A stretch of DNA of 60,513 nt from NCBI GenBank assembly GCA_963788655.1, contig CAWBHS010000104.1:1-60513 (forward strand), in the 5' to 3' direction. Positions 2,843-56,915 of this stretch are shown piece by piece (position 1 is the stretch's first letter; every line of letters begins with the position of its first letter). The notes beneath the pieces were generated by a model. It saw only the letters and a program-made list of their open reading frames with translations, did not search any database and was not told where the DNA came from. The position numbers and the translations under genes were made by a program. The DNA comes from an uncultured Verrucomicrobiae bacterium (GTDB taxonomy: Bacteria > Verrucomicrobiota > Verrucomicrobiia > Limisphaerales > JAFGQR01).

Positions 2843-2896
2843 GGATTGCGGATTGCGGACCTTCCATTGCGGAATGCGGATTGCGGATTGCGGATT
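2843..2896. repeat. Heptamer tandem array (ATTGCGG/AATGCGG), downstream arm of four-helix-bundle cassette 1
   Basis: Six units in register from 2845 to 2893, with one in-register 7-nt variant ACCTTCC (2859-2865). It is the reverse complement of the array at 3323-3371. Confidence 0.95.
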
Positions 2897-2898
2897 CG

Positions 2899-3252
2899 TT
2901 ACGGGCGACGGCGGGTTGTGTTGATGGACGCGACGGTGATGGCGACCAATTCGTCCGCTTCCTTCAGCAAGAGATCCAACTTGCGTTGTTTCACCAGCCC
3001 GGCATCCACCAGAAGTTCCATCCAGTAGCTGGTTTCGTCGGCTTCTTCCTCCACCGTGCCCATTTTGGAGATAAAGTCGGCGTTCGATTTAGCCCGGCAG
3101 GCAGCGCGGTAGTTGGCCCCAACCGATGTACCCGCCCGCAGCAGTTGCCGGCCCAGCACCCGGCCCGTTTGGGTCGCGGGTATCGTTTCCACCAGTTTGA
3201 TGATTCGCAAGGCGAAGGCCTTCGTTCGTTGTTTCATTTGGTTCGCATCCAT
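2899..3252 (-). CDS. Four helix bundle protein (23S rRNA IVP / TIGR02436-like), 117 aa
   Basis: MDANQMKQRTKAFALRIIKL...QLLRAGTSVGANYRAACRAKSNADFISKMGTVEEEADETSYWMELL. AGGA lies upstream of ATG 3252. The longer ORF-track start reads through the repeat array. Confidence 0.92.
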   Translation of the reverse strand: MDANQMKQRTKAFALRIIKLVETIPATQTGRVLGRQLLRAGTSVGANYRAACRAKSNADFISKMGTVEEEADETSYWMELLVDAGLVKQRKLDLLLKEADELVAITVASINTTRRRP

Positions 3253-3322
3253 ACGTGTCCTGATTCTCTGAGTTTCAACGTTAGTTTGGCGTCCTGTGGA
3301 TGGACGCGTCCGAATTCTGAAC

Positions 3323-3370
3323 CCGCAATCCGCATTCCGCATTCCGCAATCCGCATTCCGCATTCCGCAA

Positions 3371-3371
<1 letters not shown>
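3323..3371. repeat. Heptamer tandem array (CCGCAAT/CCGCATT x7), upstream arm of cassette 1
   Basis: Seven contiguous units in the order AAT,ATT,ATT,AAT,ATT,ATT,AAT (21-nt super-period). The array abuts the stop codon of the upstream kinase. Confidence 0.95.
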
Positions 3372-6516
<3,145 letters not shown>

Positions 6517-11363: not shown

Positions 11364-12918
11364 ATGATTGAGCAAATCGTCATTCTCGATTTTGGGTCGC
11401 AATACACGCAGGTCATTGCCCGGCGCATCCGCGAGTGCAACGTCTATTCGCACCATCCTGCGCTTACGACACCCCGGCGCACGAAGATCGCCGCGACTGA
11501 AGCCCAGCGGGCTGATCTCTGTCCGGCGGGCCGTCCAGCGTGTACGCCGAAGGCGCCGCTGCCGGACAAGGGCATTTTCAAGCTGGGCGTGCCGATGCTC
11601 GGCATCTGTTACGGCCTGCAACTGCTGGCGCAATATCTCGGCGGCAAAGTCGGAACGGGTCAGAAACGTGAATACGGCAAAGGCACACTGAGCGTCATGG
11701 ACCGCAGCCTGCGCAGTTGTTCGCCAACCTGCCGCGCAGCTTGCAGGTCTGGAATTCGCACGGCGACAAGCTCACCCGACTGCCCGAGGGCTTCAAGCCC
11801 GTGGCGGCGACCGCGACAATTCGCGATTACGCCGCCATCGAGCATCGGCGCAAAAAGATTCTTTGGCCTGCAGTTTCATCCCGAAGTCGTCCACACGCCG
11901 CGCGGCAGGGAAATCATCACCAATTTCGTCCACCGCGTCTGCGGCTGCGGCAAGGACTGGACGATGCGCAATTACGTCGAGCAGGCCGTGGAGGAAATCC
12001 GCGCGCAGGTCGGCGACGGAACGCGTCATTCTCGGCCTGAGCGGCGGCGTGGATTCCAGCGTGGCGGCGGCGCTGATTCACAGGGCCATCGGCGATCAAC
12101 TCACCTGCATTTTCGTCAACAACGGCGTGCTTCGCGCGGACGCGAAGCCGGACGTGGTGCGGGAAGTATTCGGCCGCACTTCAAAATGAAGCTGCAATAC
12201 GAGGACGCTTCGAAGCTGTTCCTCCGGCGGCTCAAGGGCGTCACCGAGCCGGAACGCAAACGCAAAATCATCGGCCGGACGTTCATCGAAGTGTTCCAAG
12301 CCGCCACGCGCAACGGGCGGGCAAGGCGAAGTTTCTCGCGCAGGGCACGCTTTACCCGGACGTCATCGAGTCGGTGCCCATCGGCGGCAATCCCGCCGCG
12401 CTCATCAAGAGCCATCACAACGTCGGCGGCCTGCCCAAGAAGATGAAGTTCGAGCTCGTCGAACCGTTGAAATGCCTGTTCAAGGACGAAGTGCGCCTGC
12501 TCGGCCTCGAACTCGGTTTGCCCAAGGAGATCGTCTGTCGGCAGCCGTTCCCCGGCCCCGGCCTGGCCGTGCGCATCCTCGGCGAAGTCACGCCGCGCGC
12601 GTTGCAACATTCTGCGCGAAGCCGACGCCATCGTGGTCGAGGAAATGAAAGCCAGCGGCTGGTACTACAAGATCTGGCAGAGCTTCGCGGTGCTGCTGCC
12701 GGTGCGCAGCGTGGGCGTGATGGGCGACGAGCGCACCTACGATTACACCATCGCCATGCGCGCCGTGGAATCGCAGGACGGCATGACCGCCGATTGGGTG
12801 AAGCTGCCTTACGACTTGCTGGAGAAGCTCTCCAGCCGCATCATCAACGAGGTGAAAGGCGTCAACCGGCTGCTTCGACATCACCAGCAAACCGCCCGGG
12901 ACGATCGAGTGGGAGTGA
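11364..12918 (+). CDS. guaA: GMP synthase (glutamine-hydrolysing), many frameshifts
   Basis: [70 protein letters not shown] and terminal KPPGTIEWE, spread over three frames. Confidence 0.93.
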
Positions 12919-15454: not shown

Positions 15455-15677
15455 CCAGTTGCCTTTGGCCGTCTGCGCTTCATAGCTTGTCCCGATACTA
15501 TGAGCGCGCCAGCCGTCTGTTTCATGTCCACGGTTTTCTGCCACCCACCGGCGGATTGGTTGCAATTGTTTGACAAAACGCTTGTGGTTTGTGGGATTGA
15601 ACCGTATCGAATGGGAGTCCATTTCCAATGACACAGCGCAGAACATAAACATCGCCAACCTTGCCCGAATCAACCGA

Positions 15678-16719
15678 ATGAGCACCTCGCCAATTTCAAC
15701 CCCGCAGGCCCCGCCGTCCGATCAGGATCTCCAGGCTGTGCAAAACCTCAAAGAATCCTGCGCCAAAATCAAAACCGAGTTGGCCAAGGTCATCGTCGGT
15801 CAGGAACAAGTGATCCAAGAGGTGCTGATTGCCATCCTTACCCGTAGTCACGCGCTGCTGGTCGGGGTGCCGGGGTTGGCCAAAACGCTGCTGGTTTCCA
15901 CGCTGGCGCAGACGTTGCACCTTACCTTCAAACGCATCCAGTTCACCCCCGACCTGATGCCCAGCGACATCACCGGCACCGAGGTGATTTACCAGGATCC
16001 CGCCACCGGCCAGCGCGAGTTCCGGTTCCTCAAAGGCCCGATTTTCGCCAACATGATTTTGGCGGACGAAATCAACCGCACGCCGCCCAAGACGCAGGCA
16101 GCCATGCTCGAATCGATGCAGGAACGCAAGGTCAGCGTCGGGCGGCACGGATTTCCCGCTGCCGGACCCATTCTTCGTGCTCGCCACGCAAAATCCCATC
16201 GAGCAAGAGGGCACCTACCCGTTGCCCGAGGCGCAACTCGACCGGTTCATGTTCATGATCAACGTGGAGTATCCCAGCGATCTGGAAGAACGGGAGATCA
16301 TGAAAATGGCCACCGGCGTCAGCATGGGCAAACCGGAACCCGTCCTGACCGCCGAGGAAATCATCAACCTCCAACAAGTCGTGCGCCGCATGCCAGTGGC
16401 CGAGCACGTTTATGCTTACGGAGAAAAACTGGTGCGCGTGACCCGGCCGAAATCCGACGAGGCGCTGGATTTCTGCAAGAAATGGCTGACCTGGGGTGCT
16501 GGTCCGCGGGCAGGGTTGAATCTCATTCTGGCCGCTAAAGCCCGGGCGATGCTGGCCGGCCAGTTTTACGTAAGCTGCGACGATGTGGAAGCCGTCGCGT
16601 TGCCCATCTTCCGGCATCGCATCATCCTGAACTTCGCCGCCCAAAGCGAATCGGTGACCGCCGATGACATCACCCGCAAGATTTTGGAAAGCGTGCCGAA
16701 GGACGAGAAGTTGAAGTGA
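15678..16719 (+). CDS. MoxR-family AAA+ ATPase (one frameshift near 16140)
   Basis: [35 protein letters not shown], then [22 protein letters not shown] in the next frame. Confidence 0.93.
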
Positions 16720-16720
16720 G

Positions 16721-17626
16721 ATGGCCACTCCCGACCCCAACCAACTCCTCGATCCCGTCGCCATCGCCCGCGCCGAATCGCTCGGATTGAACGCGCGTTA
16801 CATTGTTGAGGGTTATATGGCGGGCGAGCACAAATCGCCTTACCGCGGGTTTGCCATCGAGTTCGCCCAGCATCGCGAATACACGCACGGTGACGATACC
16901 CGCCATCTCGACTGGAAAGTCCTTGGCCGCACCGACCGTTATTACATCAAACAATACGAGCAGGAAACCAATTACGTTGCCCACCTCCTGCTCGACGGCA
17001 GCGAGTCGATGAAATACGGCTCCGGCAAGCTGACCAAGCTGCACTACGGCAAAATGATGGCGGCCTGCCTGGCCTACCTCATTCTTCATCAGCGCGATGC
17101 CGTGGCCCTCGGTTTGTTCGACACCGCAGTACGCGATTACACGCCGCGCAGCGACAACATCGCCACCATCCACCACCTGATGTCCAAGCTGGCCGCGTTC
17201 GATCCGCAGGCGCAAACCGACATCAGCACGGTGCTGCACGACATGGCGCATCAAATCCGCCGCAAAGGCATTGTCATCGTAATCAGCGATTTCTTCGACG
17301 ACGAACAAAAGGTGCTCGACGGCATTCAACACCTGCGGTTTGGCGGCAATGAGGTCATCGTGTTCCATGTCATGGATCCCTACGAACTGGAGTTTCCGTT
17401 CCTGGGCTTGGTGGAATTTGACGGGTTGGAAGGCATTCCCAAAATCCTGACCCGCCCCAGTGAAATCCGTAAAAGCTACCTGCGCGAGGTCGAAGCGTTC
17501 CGGTTGCGCTTGCGGGAAGGTTGCGAGAAAAACCACTGCCATTACGTCCTGGTCAACACCGCGCAACCGTTGCCCGAGGTGCTGAGCGGGTATTTGGCGT
17601 TTCGCCGGCGAACCACGACGCGATGA
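16721..17626 (+). CDS. DUF58 domain protein
   Basis: GEHKSPYRGFAIEFAQHREYTHGDDTRHLDWK, LLLDGSESM, ISDFFD. Follows the MoxR gene. Confidence 0.92.
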   Translation: MATPDPNQLLDPVAIARAESLGLNARYIVEGYMAGEHKSPYRGFAIEFAQHREYTHGDDTRHLDWKVLGRTDRYYIKQYEQETNYVAHLLLDGSESMKYGSGKLTKLHYGKMMAACLAYLILHQRDAVALGLFDTAVRDYTPRSDNIATIHHLMSKLAAFDPQAQTDISTVLHDMAHQIRRKGIVIVISDFFDDEQKVLDGIQHLRFGGNEVIVFHVMDPYELEFPFLGLVEFDGLEGIPKILTRPSEIRKSYLREVEAFRLRLREGCEKNHCHYVLVNTAQPLPEVLSGYLAFRRRTTTR

Positions 17627-17633
17627 GGAAAGG

Positions 17634-17701
17634 AATGACCAATGACCAATGACCAATGACGCAATGACCAGAGAATGCCCAGGAGGCAATGACCAATGAC
17701 C
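17634..17701. repeat. Heptamer array (AATGACC)n, upstream arm of four-helix-bundle cassette 2
   Basis: AATGACC x3, AATGACG-C, AATGACC, AGAG, AATGCCC, AGGAGGC, AATGACC x2. Starts 7 nt after the DUF58 stop. Confidence 0.93.
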
Positions 17702-18188
17702 GAACATTCGGCAGCAGTCAGCGGTAGTGAGTCGTGGGAGAATGAGAAGGTGAAGGACGCTTATCCTGAATCTTCGGGGTTCTTTTTCGAGCTTCGGGAA
17801 CAGGGAACGGAGCTTCCAGGGAGGAACTGTTTTAGGACCGGCACCGTTTGATCTTGAGGAACGGACGGCGAAGTTTGGAGAAGCCGTCATCCAGTTCGCC
17901 AAGAAGCTGCGTCCTGTACCAGCTAACAATCGCATTATCGACCAATTAGTCGGCTGCGGGACGAGTATAGGTGCCAATTACTGTGAAGCAGACGAAGCGG
18001 TTTCTAAAAAGGAATTTCTGAACAAGATCGGCACCTGCAAGAAAGAAGCCAAGGAAACCAAATTCTTCCTGCGAATGTCCGCCATTGCGGAACCCGAACT
18101 GAAAGCTGAAGCTCGCCGACTCTGGCGTGAAGCCAAAGAACTGCACCTCATCTTCGCCGCCATCTTCCGTAAAGGACGGGGGAAATGA
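17696..18188 (+). CDS. Four helix bundle protein (23S rRNA IVP family), one apparent frameshift near 17820; missed by ORF track
   Basis: Manual translation: PFDLEERTAKFGEAVIQFAKKL...DQLVGCGTSIGANYCEADEAVSKKEFLNKIGTCKKEAKETKFFLRM...EAKELHLIFAAIFRKGRGK*. AGGAGG lies 9 nt before ATG 17696, whose frame needs a 1-nt correction to join the domain. Confidence 0.85.
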
Positions 18189-18433
18189 CCAATGAACCAA
18201 GGCCCAAGTAATGACCAAGCAATGAGCACCCAGAGTTTAGAGATGCATGTTTTAAAGTCGCGTGCCGCGCGTCAGTCAGCGCCGCTAACTGGAACTTGGC
18301 GCTTTCGACCTTGGTCGTTCTGCGGTTATTGGCCATTGAACACTTATCGTTCGTCACCCCTTGGTTCCCGATCCTTCATTGGTCATTGGCACTTGTTCAT
18401 TCTCCGGTCATTGGTCGTTGGTCATTGGTCATT
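18184..18433. repeat. Downstream repeat region of cassette 2: AATGACC-like units (18184-18227), then inverted GGTCATT-like units (18313-18337, 18374-18433)
   Basis: GGTCATT, GGTCGTT, GGCCATT and GTTCATT units. The block 18374-18433 mirrors the upstream arm, including a 4-nt spacer (CTCC versus AGAG). Confidence 0.9.
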
Positions 18434-18473
18434 TTTCCCCCCTTCTTTCTAAGTCTCCGAAAGCTCCTATCCA

Positions 18474-20681
18474 ATGTCCTTTCTCAACCCCATCATGCTC
18501 TTCGGACTGGCGGCGGTATCGGTACCGATCATCATCCACTTGCTGAACCGGCGGCGCTTTCAGAAAATCCAATGGGCGGCGATGCGGTTTCTAAAAATCA
18601 GCGTCGAGCAAAACCAGAAGCGGATGCGCATCGAAGATCTGATTCTGCTCGCGCTGCGCTGCCTGTTGCTGTTGCTGCTGGCGCTGGCGCTGGCACGACC
18701 GGCCCTGCTCTCCTCGGCCAACGGCGCATTCGGACAATCCAAAGTCACGGCGGTGATTGTCCTCGACAATTCCTACAGCATGGGCACCAGTGACGGTACC
18801 CGGACCCGTTTCGAAAAAGCCCAGGACGCGGCGTTGCAGGCGCTCGACTCGATGCCCGCCGGTTCCGCCACCGCACTGTTGTACGCTTCGGATGTTGTCA
18901 ATGCTGCCATTCCCGAACCGACCTTTGACCTGAACCTGGCCCGCAAACTGATTCGCGAAGCGCCGCTCACCGACCGCGGCACCGACCTGTTTCCCGCCCT
19001 CCAAAAAGCCGTCGATACCCTCAAAGGCCGTCTGGTCATTCGCAAGGAGATTTATCTCATCACCGACGGGCAATCCGCGGGCTGGCGGCAACTGGCGGAA
19101 ATCCAGAACGTCCTCGAACGGGCCAAGACGGAGATCAACAGCCACCTCATTCTGGTGAGTGAACACGAAACCCAAAATCTCGGCCTCAGCAACCTGCGCC
19201 TGGCCAGCGGTCTTTCACCGGCTCGACAGGCGCTGCGGTTTCAGGCGAAAGTGACCAATTACGGCACCGAAGAACGCCGCAATACCCGCGTGGCCCTGAG
19301 CGTGGATGAGGAACCACCGTGCGACGAATTCAACATCGACGCCCTGCCGCCCGGCGCCACGCGCAGCGTGTCGCTCTTCGCCAAATTGCCGACCGCCGGT
19401 TTCCACGCCATCACAGCCCGCATCCCGGAAGACCGTTTGCACGCCGACGACCGACGCCTCATGGCCGTGCGCGCCATCGACGAAGTGCGCGTGCTGCTGG
19501 TTGATGGCGAGCCGGGCAACGAGCCGCGCGACAGTGAAGTCTTCTTTTTGCACAACGCCCTGGTGCCGGTTCCACCGGAGATGGCCCCGAACTATTTTGT
19601 CAAAGTCACCGCGCTCACGTCCTCGGAATTCTCCCAGGCCCGCCTGGATGAGTACGACGCCATCTTCCTGGCCAACGTGCCCGACTTCTCCGAGAAGACC
19701 CTGCAAGCGCTCGAGAGTTATCTGCGACGCGGCGGCGGGCTGATCATCTTTCCCGGCGGCCGAGTGAACGTCACCTTTTACAACGAGCAGTTGTTGAAAC
19801 GGTTCAACTTCCTGCCAGCGGCGCTGGGTTCGGCGCTGGGCCAGGTCGAAGATGAATTCAAGTTTACCCGGTTCCAGGACAAGGATTACACCCATCCCAT
19901 CGTTTCGATATGGAACGATCCTTCGGCCGGCACGCTGGCCTCGGCGCGGATTTTCAAATGGTTCGCCCTCCAACCGGCACCGCCAGTCAAATCTTCCGCG
20001 ACCCAGCCAGCCACCGCGGACAATCAACATCCCCAGGAAGCCGGTGACCCGCGTATCGTGTTGAAGTACGCCGATGGCTCACCGGCGGTGATGGAGCGGA
20101 CGTGGGGACTGGGACGCGTGGTGTTGTTCAGCAGCACGGCGGACACGGCCTGGAACGATCTGCCGGTACGCCTGGCCTGGCTACCGTTGGTGCATCGGAC
20201 GCTGGGGGCAATCATCGAGCGTCAGGACGAAGGCTTGAACATCCGCGTGGGCGAGCAATTCGTCCGGCGCGTGAAAATGGAATACCTGGACAAGGACGCC
20301 ACGTTTTTCAAGCCGCGCCAAACCGATGCCGTTCGCGATTTGCGTCGGGTCGAGTTGGTCAACGGTTGGCCGTTGCTGCAATACCGCCAGACGGATTTGG
20401 CCGGACTGTACGATGTGAATATTCCTGATCCGCCCTTGACGATGAAGTTTGCCACGCAAGCCAACGCCGCGGAATCGAGTCTCGAAGAACTCTCCCCGGC
20501 GCAGCTCAAGACCATCGGTTCGGTGGCGCAAATCATTACTTGGACCCCGAACTTGGTGTTAACGGACGTGGTCGAGCAGGCGCGTAGCGGCCTGGAATTC
20601 TGGCTGCCGATTGCCATCGCCGCGCTGCTCGTGGCCGCCGTCGAAACGTTTCTGGCCCAGTGGTTCAGCCGGGCGAAGTGA
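18474..20681 (+). CDS. BatA N-terminal / VWA domain membrane protein
   Basis: PIIIHLLNRRR...WAAMRFL double-TM BatA motif, DNSYSM MIDAS, ITDGQ, C-terminal TM. Confidence 0.9.
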   Translation: MSFLNPIMLFGLAAVSVPIIIHLLNRRRFQKIQWAAMRFLKISVEQNQKRMRIEDLILLALRCLLLLLLALALARPALLSSANGAFGQSKVTAVIVLDNSYSMGTSDGTRTRFEKAQDAALQALDSMPAGSATALLYASDVVNAAIPEPTFDLNLARKLIREAPLTDRGTDLFPALQKAVDTLKGRLVIRKEIYLITDGQSAGWRQLAEIQNVLERAKTEINSHLILVSEHETQNLGLSNLRLASGLSPARQALRFQAKVTNYGTEERRNTRVALSVDEEPPCDEFNIDALPPGATRSVSLFAKLPTAGFHAITARIPEDRLHADDRRLMAVRAIDEVRVLLVDGEPGNEPRDSEVFFLHNALVPVPPEMAPNYFVKVTALTSSEFSQARLDEYDAIFLANVPDFSEKTLQALESYLRRGGGLIIFPGGRVNVTFYNEQLLKRFNFLPAALGSALGQVEDEFKFTRFQDKDYTHPIVSIWNDPSAGTLASARIFKWFALQPAPPVKSSATQPATADNQHPQEAGDPRIVLKYADGSPAVMERTWGLGRVVLFSSTADTAWNDLPVRLAWLPLVHRTLGAIIERQDEGLNIRVGEQFVRRVKMEYLDKDATFFKPRQTDAVRDLRRVELVNGWPLLQYRQTDLAGLYDVNIPDPPLTMKFATQANAAESSLEELSPAQLKTIGSVAQIITWTPNLVLTDVVEQARSGLEFWLPIAIAALLVAAVETFLAQWFSRAK

Positions 20682-56775: not shown

Positions 56776-56915
56776 CTTCGCGGCTCTTCGCGGCCTGGTT
56801 GCGGCCTTCGCGGCCTTCGCGGCCTTCGCGGCCTTCGCGGCTTCGCAGCCTTCGCGGCCTTCGCGGCTCTTCGCGGCCTTCGCGGCTCTTCGCGGCCTTC
56901 GCGGCTCTTCGCGGC
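56776..56915. repeat. Tandem 9/10-mer array (CTTCGCGGC / TCTTCGCGGC), about 15 units
   Basis: Contiguous units without spacers, intergenic. Confidence 0.93.

Follow-up and report, generated by a model that had tools for sequence, protein, structure and literature searches.

Among the systems closest to the locus described here, Avd of diversity-generating retroelements (DGRs) binds nucleic acid and works with a reverse transcriptase, and STRR2 of cyanobacteria is one of several heptamer repeats found between genes. Avd is homologous to PF05635 (excerpts of PMC10053308); PF05635 and TIGR02436 describe a common protein family of unknown function, and the excess of intergenic heptamers in many bacteria is itself unexplained. 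In Coxiella burnetii's 23S rRNA intervening sequence (IVS), the gene for S23p, a member of this family, occupies the loop of terminal inverted repeats, with tandem heptamers of variable copy number just before its start codon (excerpts of PMC4990558). In RAYT/REPIN systems, as excerpted sources describe them, a gene that does not itself jump is flanked by its cognate repeats (PMC3116915), the ends of many gene-less inverted doublets are conserved and the spacer, which has a preferred length, is less so, compensatory changes are reported to be common, and repeat abundance follows the gene (bioRxiv 10.1101/2021.07.10.451892). Intergenic tandem 7-mers in tens to hundreds of copies, sometimes as facing pairs, are described in excerpts on the TAACTGA repeat of Beggiatoaceae (PMC4679880) and the heptanucleotide elements of Geobacter (PMC2700814).

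The window, the whole stretch of 60,513 nt that was analysed, is contig C104 of an 8.96-Mb MAG (Verrucomicrobiota; 86% complete; labelled G000). As the original prediction had it, the DUF58|batA junction holds a four-helix-bundle gene flanked by inverted AATGACC arms, which profile matches and arm complementarity confirm (Table 1). Profile searches identify the neighbours of this cassette as MoxR AAA_3, DUF58 and BatA, and the best homologues of its protein are mostly from Verrucomicrobiota records. The features listed above for the Coxiella IVS are shared, but the cassette lies between protein-coding cistrons (DUF58, BatA) and not in rRNA, and its family has arms of about 60 nt, a fixed 4-nt core and dozens of gene-less copies. 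It also resembles RAYT/REPIN systems in having cognate repeats around the gene and many gene-less doublets; in contrast, its protein is a four-helix bundle with matches to TIGR02436 and PF05635 only and no HUH/Y1 transposase, its ends are heptamer arrays rather than short palindromes, and compensatory changes are absent within genomes. Avd is of the same fold family, with pentameric relatives, but unlike in a DGR no reverse transcriptase occurs among the annotated neighbours, and none of 13 RVT_1 hits falls on this contig. A MITE (a TIR element moved by a DDE transposase) would be expected to have a target-site duplication; no consistent flanking direct repeat was found at 23 sites. By analogy, the family seems to work like the rRNA IVS and RAYT/REPIN, yet it stands outside the first by location, outside the second by enzyme and outside DGRs by reverse transcriptase.

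Table 1. Features of the host operon and the cassette (positions in the window).
Feature	Position	Strand	Remarks
MoxR AAA_3 ATPase, host operon gene 1	15570..16719	+	frameshift near 16081-16175 in this assembly
DUF58 gene	16721..17626	+	stop TGA 17624-17626; left arm begins 7 nt on
Left arm	17634..17701	+	five outer heptamer units, 4-nt core 17670-17673, two variant and two canonical inner units
Shine-Dalgarno AGGAGG (17681-17686) and ATG 17696	17681..17698	+	inside inner left arm
N-terminal leader in the ATG frame	17696..17851	+	homologous to L031 and L032 leaders
Open frame with 23S_rRNA_IVP / TIGR02436 core	17754..18188	+	core about 17847-18185; purifying selection
Third arm	18184..18227	+	degenerate direct copy of left arm, just past the stop
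Extra right-type units, degenerate	18306..18338	-	pairing with third arm at chance level
Right arm	18374..18433	-	four outer units, 4-nt core 18402-18405, inner units
BatA/vWA gene	18474..20681	+	start 40 nt past right arm

The profile match on which the original prediction hinged is present, as the frame 17754-18185 scores 57.9 bits against TIGR02436 (cut-off 24) and 37.1 bits against PF05635 (cut-off 33.8), and it also matches PDB 2RLD, a five-chain entry, with an E of 6e-9. The gene is indeed missing from the list of open reading frames, because this frame contains no ATG, GTG or TTG; its stop, TGA 18186-18188, overlaps a heptamer unit. Conservation places the true start at ATG 17696: the leader in that frame has 13 of 24 residues identical to the N-terminus of the best homologue, L031 (E 3e-5), and its motifs are also common to L032. 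From this ATG to the core there are 50 codons plus 1 nt, so the two are one base out of step, and a +1 shift into the core frame is required between about 17808 and 17846. The frameshift proposed at 17815-17825 is thus real in the assembly, though its place can be resolved only to about 17808-17846. A non-ATG start in the core frame is disfavoured, the ATG-frame leader being conserved in three homologues, and a programmed frameshift is improbable, given that close homologues keep to a single frame throughout; prfB-type frameshifting calls for re-pairing and a particular SD spacing, and the GTT-TGA site here lacks both.

The core is under strong purifying selection (dN 0.16 and dS 2.3 against L031; 16 synonymous and 2 non-synonymous changes private to the window), and the frame break is therefore recent or an error. 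Among 351 ORFs from 20 congener regions, 80 have an orthologue in this genome, and 14 of these 80 orthologues switch frame (one is an antisense shadow of MoxR). This amounts to about one switch per 5 kb, a rate to be weighed whenever a gene of this genome is called a pseudogene. A frameshift likewise splits the MoxR gene of the window. Among the matches listed, four of nine non-truncated PF05635 copies in this genome look frameshifted when read by eye, which exceeds the prediction from the assembly rate and counts against a pure artefact. On balance we consider an assembly error the likelier source of the frameshift in the window gene, and the window copy, frameshifted as assembled, may no longer be acting. 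The core has one His. The published family motif has Arg before a conserved Ser (excerpts of PMC3936711), as does 2RLD; at 17930-17960 the window's subfamily has mostly Gly there.

The arms are 96% complementary between 17634-60 and 18407-33 and 84% between 17662-99 and 18376-413, and the whole cassette folds with a z of -7.6 (20 shuffles). All nine window matches to AATGACCAATGA (at most one mismatch) lie at this locus, where 0.26 would be expected in the window. The AGAG/GGAG spacer with its two variant units occurs in the arms as described, and the claim that the arms match unit for unit holds approximately, the left having five outer units (one of them 8 nt, likewise in L032/L195) and the right four; the variant units mismatch and do not compensate one another. 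An inner hairpin after the stop is seen in the full-length MFE fold, but on its own (18176-18345) it folds at shuffle level (z 0.01). Together with the outer right arm, the third arm folds with a z of -4.5, and its duplexes reach -58 kcal/mol there compared to -27 kcal/mol in the proposed inner hairpin; the post-stop units are best described as a third, direct arm, able to compete for the right one. Of 67 gene-bearing loci, 21 have a comparable third arm scoring at least 24, a threshold without a computed null. The cassette holds no promoter-like site and one terminator-like site at shuffle level, and Rfam gave a single chance-level match in 17500-18600, with none near the gathering score.

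The family to which the cassette belongs has dozens of gene-less copies in the same genome, with the same ends and a short loop that is near-constant in length and unrelated in sequence. G000 contains 243 arrays of period 7, compared to 45 of period 8. An element has two inward-facing ends, in each of which a 4-nt purine core separates 3-4 heptamers (AA-nnn-CC) from another 2-3: there are 41 gene-less inward pairs sharing the core, with 82-86 nt from core to core in 17 of them, against just one unpaired arm with an outward-facing partner within 300 nt. The loops of the 28 standard copies measure 22-35 nt and are about 34% identical to one another. Within the genome they match only sister or tandem copies, and a guide-like role for them was rejected. 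The 15-mer core (at most one mismatch) occurs 91 times in G000 and never in the congener (G001), the general core motif 147 times and once, and the congener has no match to the cassette protein at E 1e-10. G000 has a single close copy of the cassette gene, that of the window; among the matches listed, its remaining PF05635 genes bear other heptamer units and the window cassette is the only four-helix-bundle gene with AATGACC arms. Dispersed sister copies with shared loops and different flanks are found in a second genome, G026.

Our preferred reading, with a probability of roughly 0.55, is that the cassette is a gene-carrying copy of this dispersed, two-ended hairpin family, and that its protein binds the arms and supports the upkeep or spread of the family via a host enzyme, with the gene moving by recombination between arm repeats. 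An Avd-like pentamer would bind the arm motif on single-stranded DNA or RNA and would assist a host enzyme in maintaining or copying the gene-less elements, much as RAYT serves REPINs, though without itself being the catalyst; no catalytic motif or partner enzyme was identified for the cassette protein. The gene would enter and leave hairpins through the arm repeats, the direct third arm of the window cassette would allow it to pop out, and insertions would survive at cistron junctions, which would be why the arms abut stop and start codons.

That the cassette is a discrete element splitting a normally contiguous operon is borne out by relatives. The congener junction is empty, with DUF58 and batA overlapping by 4 nt, and among 103 loci with at least 60% DUF58 identity (some of them duplicates of one genome) 36 have at most 20 nt between the two genes. 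A short plain spacer is found at 18 loci, and at another 18 batA is not next or the locus is cut. Gene-less heptamer hairpins built of several different units occupy 13 (an automatic class with a few doubtful rows), toxin-antitoxin-like inserts 7, other ORFs 3, hexamer hairpins 3 and another hairpin 1. The four-helix-bundle cassette itself accounts for 3 (the window, and L031, which is the same as L201), and at the one remaining locus, L032, it sits one junction upstream, at moxR|DUF58. The compared loci include no near-identical empty version of the window junction. By this comparison the cassette is an insertion, and the junction that holds it takes up many small inserts, with or without structure. 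Looping the flanking genes back together, as had been proposed for the arms, is not required, because the same junction tolerates unstructured inserts, namely toxin-antitoxin-like pairs and other ORFs. Both junctions of moxR-DUF58-batA gather inserts of many kinds, read from sequence as Phd/ParE-like and nucleotidyltransferase/HEPN-like pairs, RAYT-like genes with palindromes, a GxxExxY-like gene with repeats, and hexamer hairpins (L129, L135, L137, L180, L191, L204 and others).

The same arms also occur at this operon without the gene. L032, together with the near-identical L132, carries the cassette at moxR|DUF58, and its relative L195 (88% flank identity) has a 132-nt gene-less hairpin with the same outer arms, identical at 32 of 33 positions on the left and 33 of 34 on the right, the left-side identity ending at the 4-nt core. 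These were compared arm by arm, as global DNA alignment matched the gene-less left arm to the third arm. A still closer relative of L032, L197, has an unrelated insert and, among the matches listed, no arms. The original prediction had named such repeats in relatives lacking the gene as evidence against it, and gene-less arms are found both at the orthologous operon, in L195, L127 and L123, and throughout G000. These comparisons show that gain or loss of the gene can leave the outer arms where they were.

For the wider gene-bearing family we took the best 80 homologues from genome contigs, of which 71 have full flanks, giving 72 with the window. Inverted arms score above the shuffle maximum at 71 of the 72, and at every locus where the two arms could be anchored, 50 out of 70, each arm has the 4-nt purine core (7 poorly anchored rows and low-scoring rows were left out). 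The junctions of 67 homologues cluster, with about 30 at dihydroorotate-dehydrogenase-family|aldehyde dehydrogenase, 11 at PSD1|DUF1501 and 6 at SIS|HAD, and others such as ftsA|ftsZ (the names preA, mmsA, gmhA and gmhB are read from Pfam hits at the junctions). In L047 and L072 the junction is Pyr_redox_2|DHO_dh, compared to DHO_dh|Aldedh at the roughly 30 loci, which is another case in which a single subfamily occupies two neighbouring junctions of the same operon. The closest homologues of the window cassette lie in the same operon, at its two adjacent junctions (moxR|DUF58 and DUF58|batA): a single clade (SH-aLRT 85) unites the window with L031 and L032, and no other tree row lies in this operon. 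Their DUF58 hosts lie far apart in the DUF58 tree, beside relatives that are empty at DUF58|batA; both trees were made by a quick method and their support is modest. This pattern fits either ancient residence with many losses or transfer between homologous operons plus a hop across one gene. The gene tends to keep to a single operon, in contrast to the dispersing gene-less copies.

The arms invite comparison with the rRNA IVS, and a doubtful alternative is that the cassette is such an intervening sequence in an mRNA. RNase III would cut the paired arms, segmenting the message or looping the gene out with DUF58 and batA kept coupled, and the stem would also hide the gene's own ribosome-binding site. 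The Coxiella 23S IVS, whose stem heptamers precede the S23p start and whose first repeat is where RNase III cuts (excerpts of PMC4990558), provides a precedent, and the window cassette has the stable stem (z -7.6) and an SD and ATG inside the arm. The geometry is also suggestive: at 64 of 67 loci, against a mirror background of 30, a co-oriented host gene ends at the left arm, and in the family the arms fill the spacer, with medians of 3.5 nt from upstream stop to left arm and 8 nt from right arm to downstream start. The expectation that the arms span the spacer thus holds family-wide and less well in the window, where the gaps are 7 and 40 nt. At 31 of 63 loci the cassette gene starts within -8 to +10 nt of the upstream stop. 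However, insertion into a near-zero spacer puts any ends beside a stop and a start, the same junction tolerates unstructured inserts, and for 19 of the 41 gene-less pairs neither side has a long ORF that ends within 60 nt.

Whether pairing itself is selected bears most directly on this alternative. The 4-nt spacer had been read as a sign of selected long-range pairing here, a reading that finds no support, since every arm in the family has this spacer as its near-invariant core. Covariation gave a divided answer. Across genomes and within a unit class, own arms match at 36.5 of 48 positions compared to 32.6 for cross arms (n = 40; p ≤ 1e-4), and in a second unit class at 34.8 compared to 30.7 (n = 10); joint compensatory departures number 122 for own against 52 for cross arms (n = 40) and 20 against 8 (n = 10). 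This own-arm excess favours the pairing claim of the original prediction. When compared within genomes, which controls for lineage-specific consensus, the excess is absent: 39 dereplicated gene-less pairs from G000 give 15.18 with their own and 15.12 with other partners out of 21 outer positions (p 0.40) and 29.5 against 30.2 overall, there is none in G026 or G035, and G031 (4 copies) goes slightly the other way. The window's own arms match at 30 of 48 positions, less than with one foreign arm, and the own partner is the best of all 72 arms at just 12 of 72 loci. G·U-type and A·C-type mismatches number 181 and 162 in the gene-bearing set, and there is no G·U excess in 50 anchored gene-bearing loci (123 against 125) or in 32 oriented own-genome hairpins (60 against 78), and no clear one in the gene-less copies of G000 (105 against 96). 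The lack of a G·U excess, and of an own-partner excess within genomes, speaks against an RNA stem cut from the message, and the arms act like one consensus end motif in two inverted copies. The AA/TT and CC/GG registers are invariant and always paired, as would equally be expected of a conserved RNA stem interrupted periodically by internal loops. The inner arms of gene-less hairpins fit their own partner less well than they fit other copies (p 0.002 in G000; also in G026 and G035), which suggests that the two ends differ and the element is polar.

Returning to the gene-carrying hairpin copy as our preferred reading, a link between protein and arms is seen across 100 relatives of the order, many of them incomplete and kin not being independent. 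At least 10 copies of the core motif are found in 14 of 20 genomes with the protein subfamily compared to 7 of 80 without (medians 37.5 and 1; Fisher p 6e-8), as in RAYT/REPIN systems, where abundance follows the gene. Restricting to genomes of at least 4.2 Mb leaves 14 of 20 compared to 6 of 53, and a reversed-pattern control gives 0-2 per genome. Exceptions run both ways, with few copies in 6 of the 20 positive genomes and many in 7 of the 80 negative ones; five of these seven were checked and all five have other TIGR02436 genes. The association could reflect shared history or shared permissiveness.

A little less probable still than an IVS in mRNA is that the protein is an RNA-binding regulator kept by the host, with the hairpins its sites or neutral passengers that spread without it, by RAYT/REPIN hitchhiking, homologous recombination across conserved flanking genes, and slippage. 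Strong purifying selection and long residence at fixed junctions would be expected of such a gene, and both operon junctions gather unrelated small inserts, including RAYT-like, toxin-antitoxin-like and GxxExxY-like genes. In G000, a REP-like palindrome is found no more than 90 nt from 54 of 191 arms, and sister copies are REP-flanked, one pair running from REP to REP, so part of the spread may be RAYT-driven hitchhiking. Against this, inspection of 20 regions from G026, G035 and G031 revealed no REP-like flank common to the gene-less copies, although recent sister copies are present there, those of G026 standing alone; no REP-like palindrome flanks the window cassette; and slippage leaves the fixed core, the fixed loop length and the inward orientation (41 pairs) unaccounted for. 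Some gene-less hairpins of G000 are also seen riding inside REP-like doublets (C68:17177-17408 and C49:179380-179611), and tandem arrays on C23, C49, C65 and C113 form BIME-like mosaics with them.

We found no description of four-helix-bundle genes tied to heptamer arms outside rRNA, in a literature coverage that excluded most subscription journals. In their excerpted main texts, the Beggiatoaceae and Geobacter papers have no mention of S23, the former (PMC4679880) none of four-helix bundles, and neither links its heptamers to these genes; the Geobacter neighbour tables (PMC2700814) could bear on the point. The link is likewise not made in excerpts of PMC3936711 (cas loci), PMC8700078 (Arthrospira) and bioRxiv 10.64898/2026.10.21.760802 (intergenic clustering). 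New from this locus are a test within one genome that speaks against pairing selection, an association seen across genomes, the pair with and without the gene (L032/L195) broken at the core, and the fidelity to the operon. A single protein subfamily is linked here with a single defined end motif, both of which the congener lacks, and if the protein drives the spread, this would be a route to small-element mobility without a transposase. More tentatively, IVP/Avd-like genes in general might be trans-acting factors of widespread non-autonomous elements with heptamer ends, each subfamily reading its own arm motif and recruiting a host enzyme (e.g. a reverse transcriptase), with the rRNA IVS as one landing place; if true, this would be a REPIN-like system without a transposase.

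Several further observations concern the same genome. A second four-helix-bundle cassette lies in the window at 2843-3372 on the minus strand, with GCGGATT-type arms and an intact ORF, between two-component genes. Elsewhere in the window, the GMP synthase at 11364-12446 is just 360 aa long, and an array of about 15 copies of a 9-nt unit lies at 56776-56915. Genes of the four-helix-bundle family have been reported in cas loci (excerpts of PMC3936711), and in G000 one with heptamer flanks, as read from sequence, lies between cas4-like and cas1-like genes (C87:44000-44950, minus strand). A similar reading of C60:3700-4600 (minus strand) finds a four-helix-bundle gene broken by a GIY-YIG-like endonuclease ORF.
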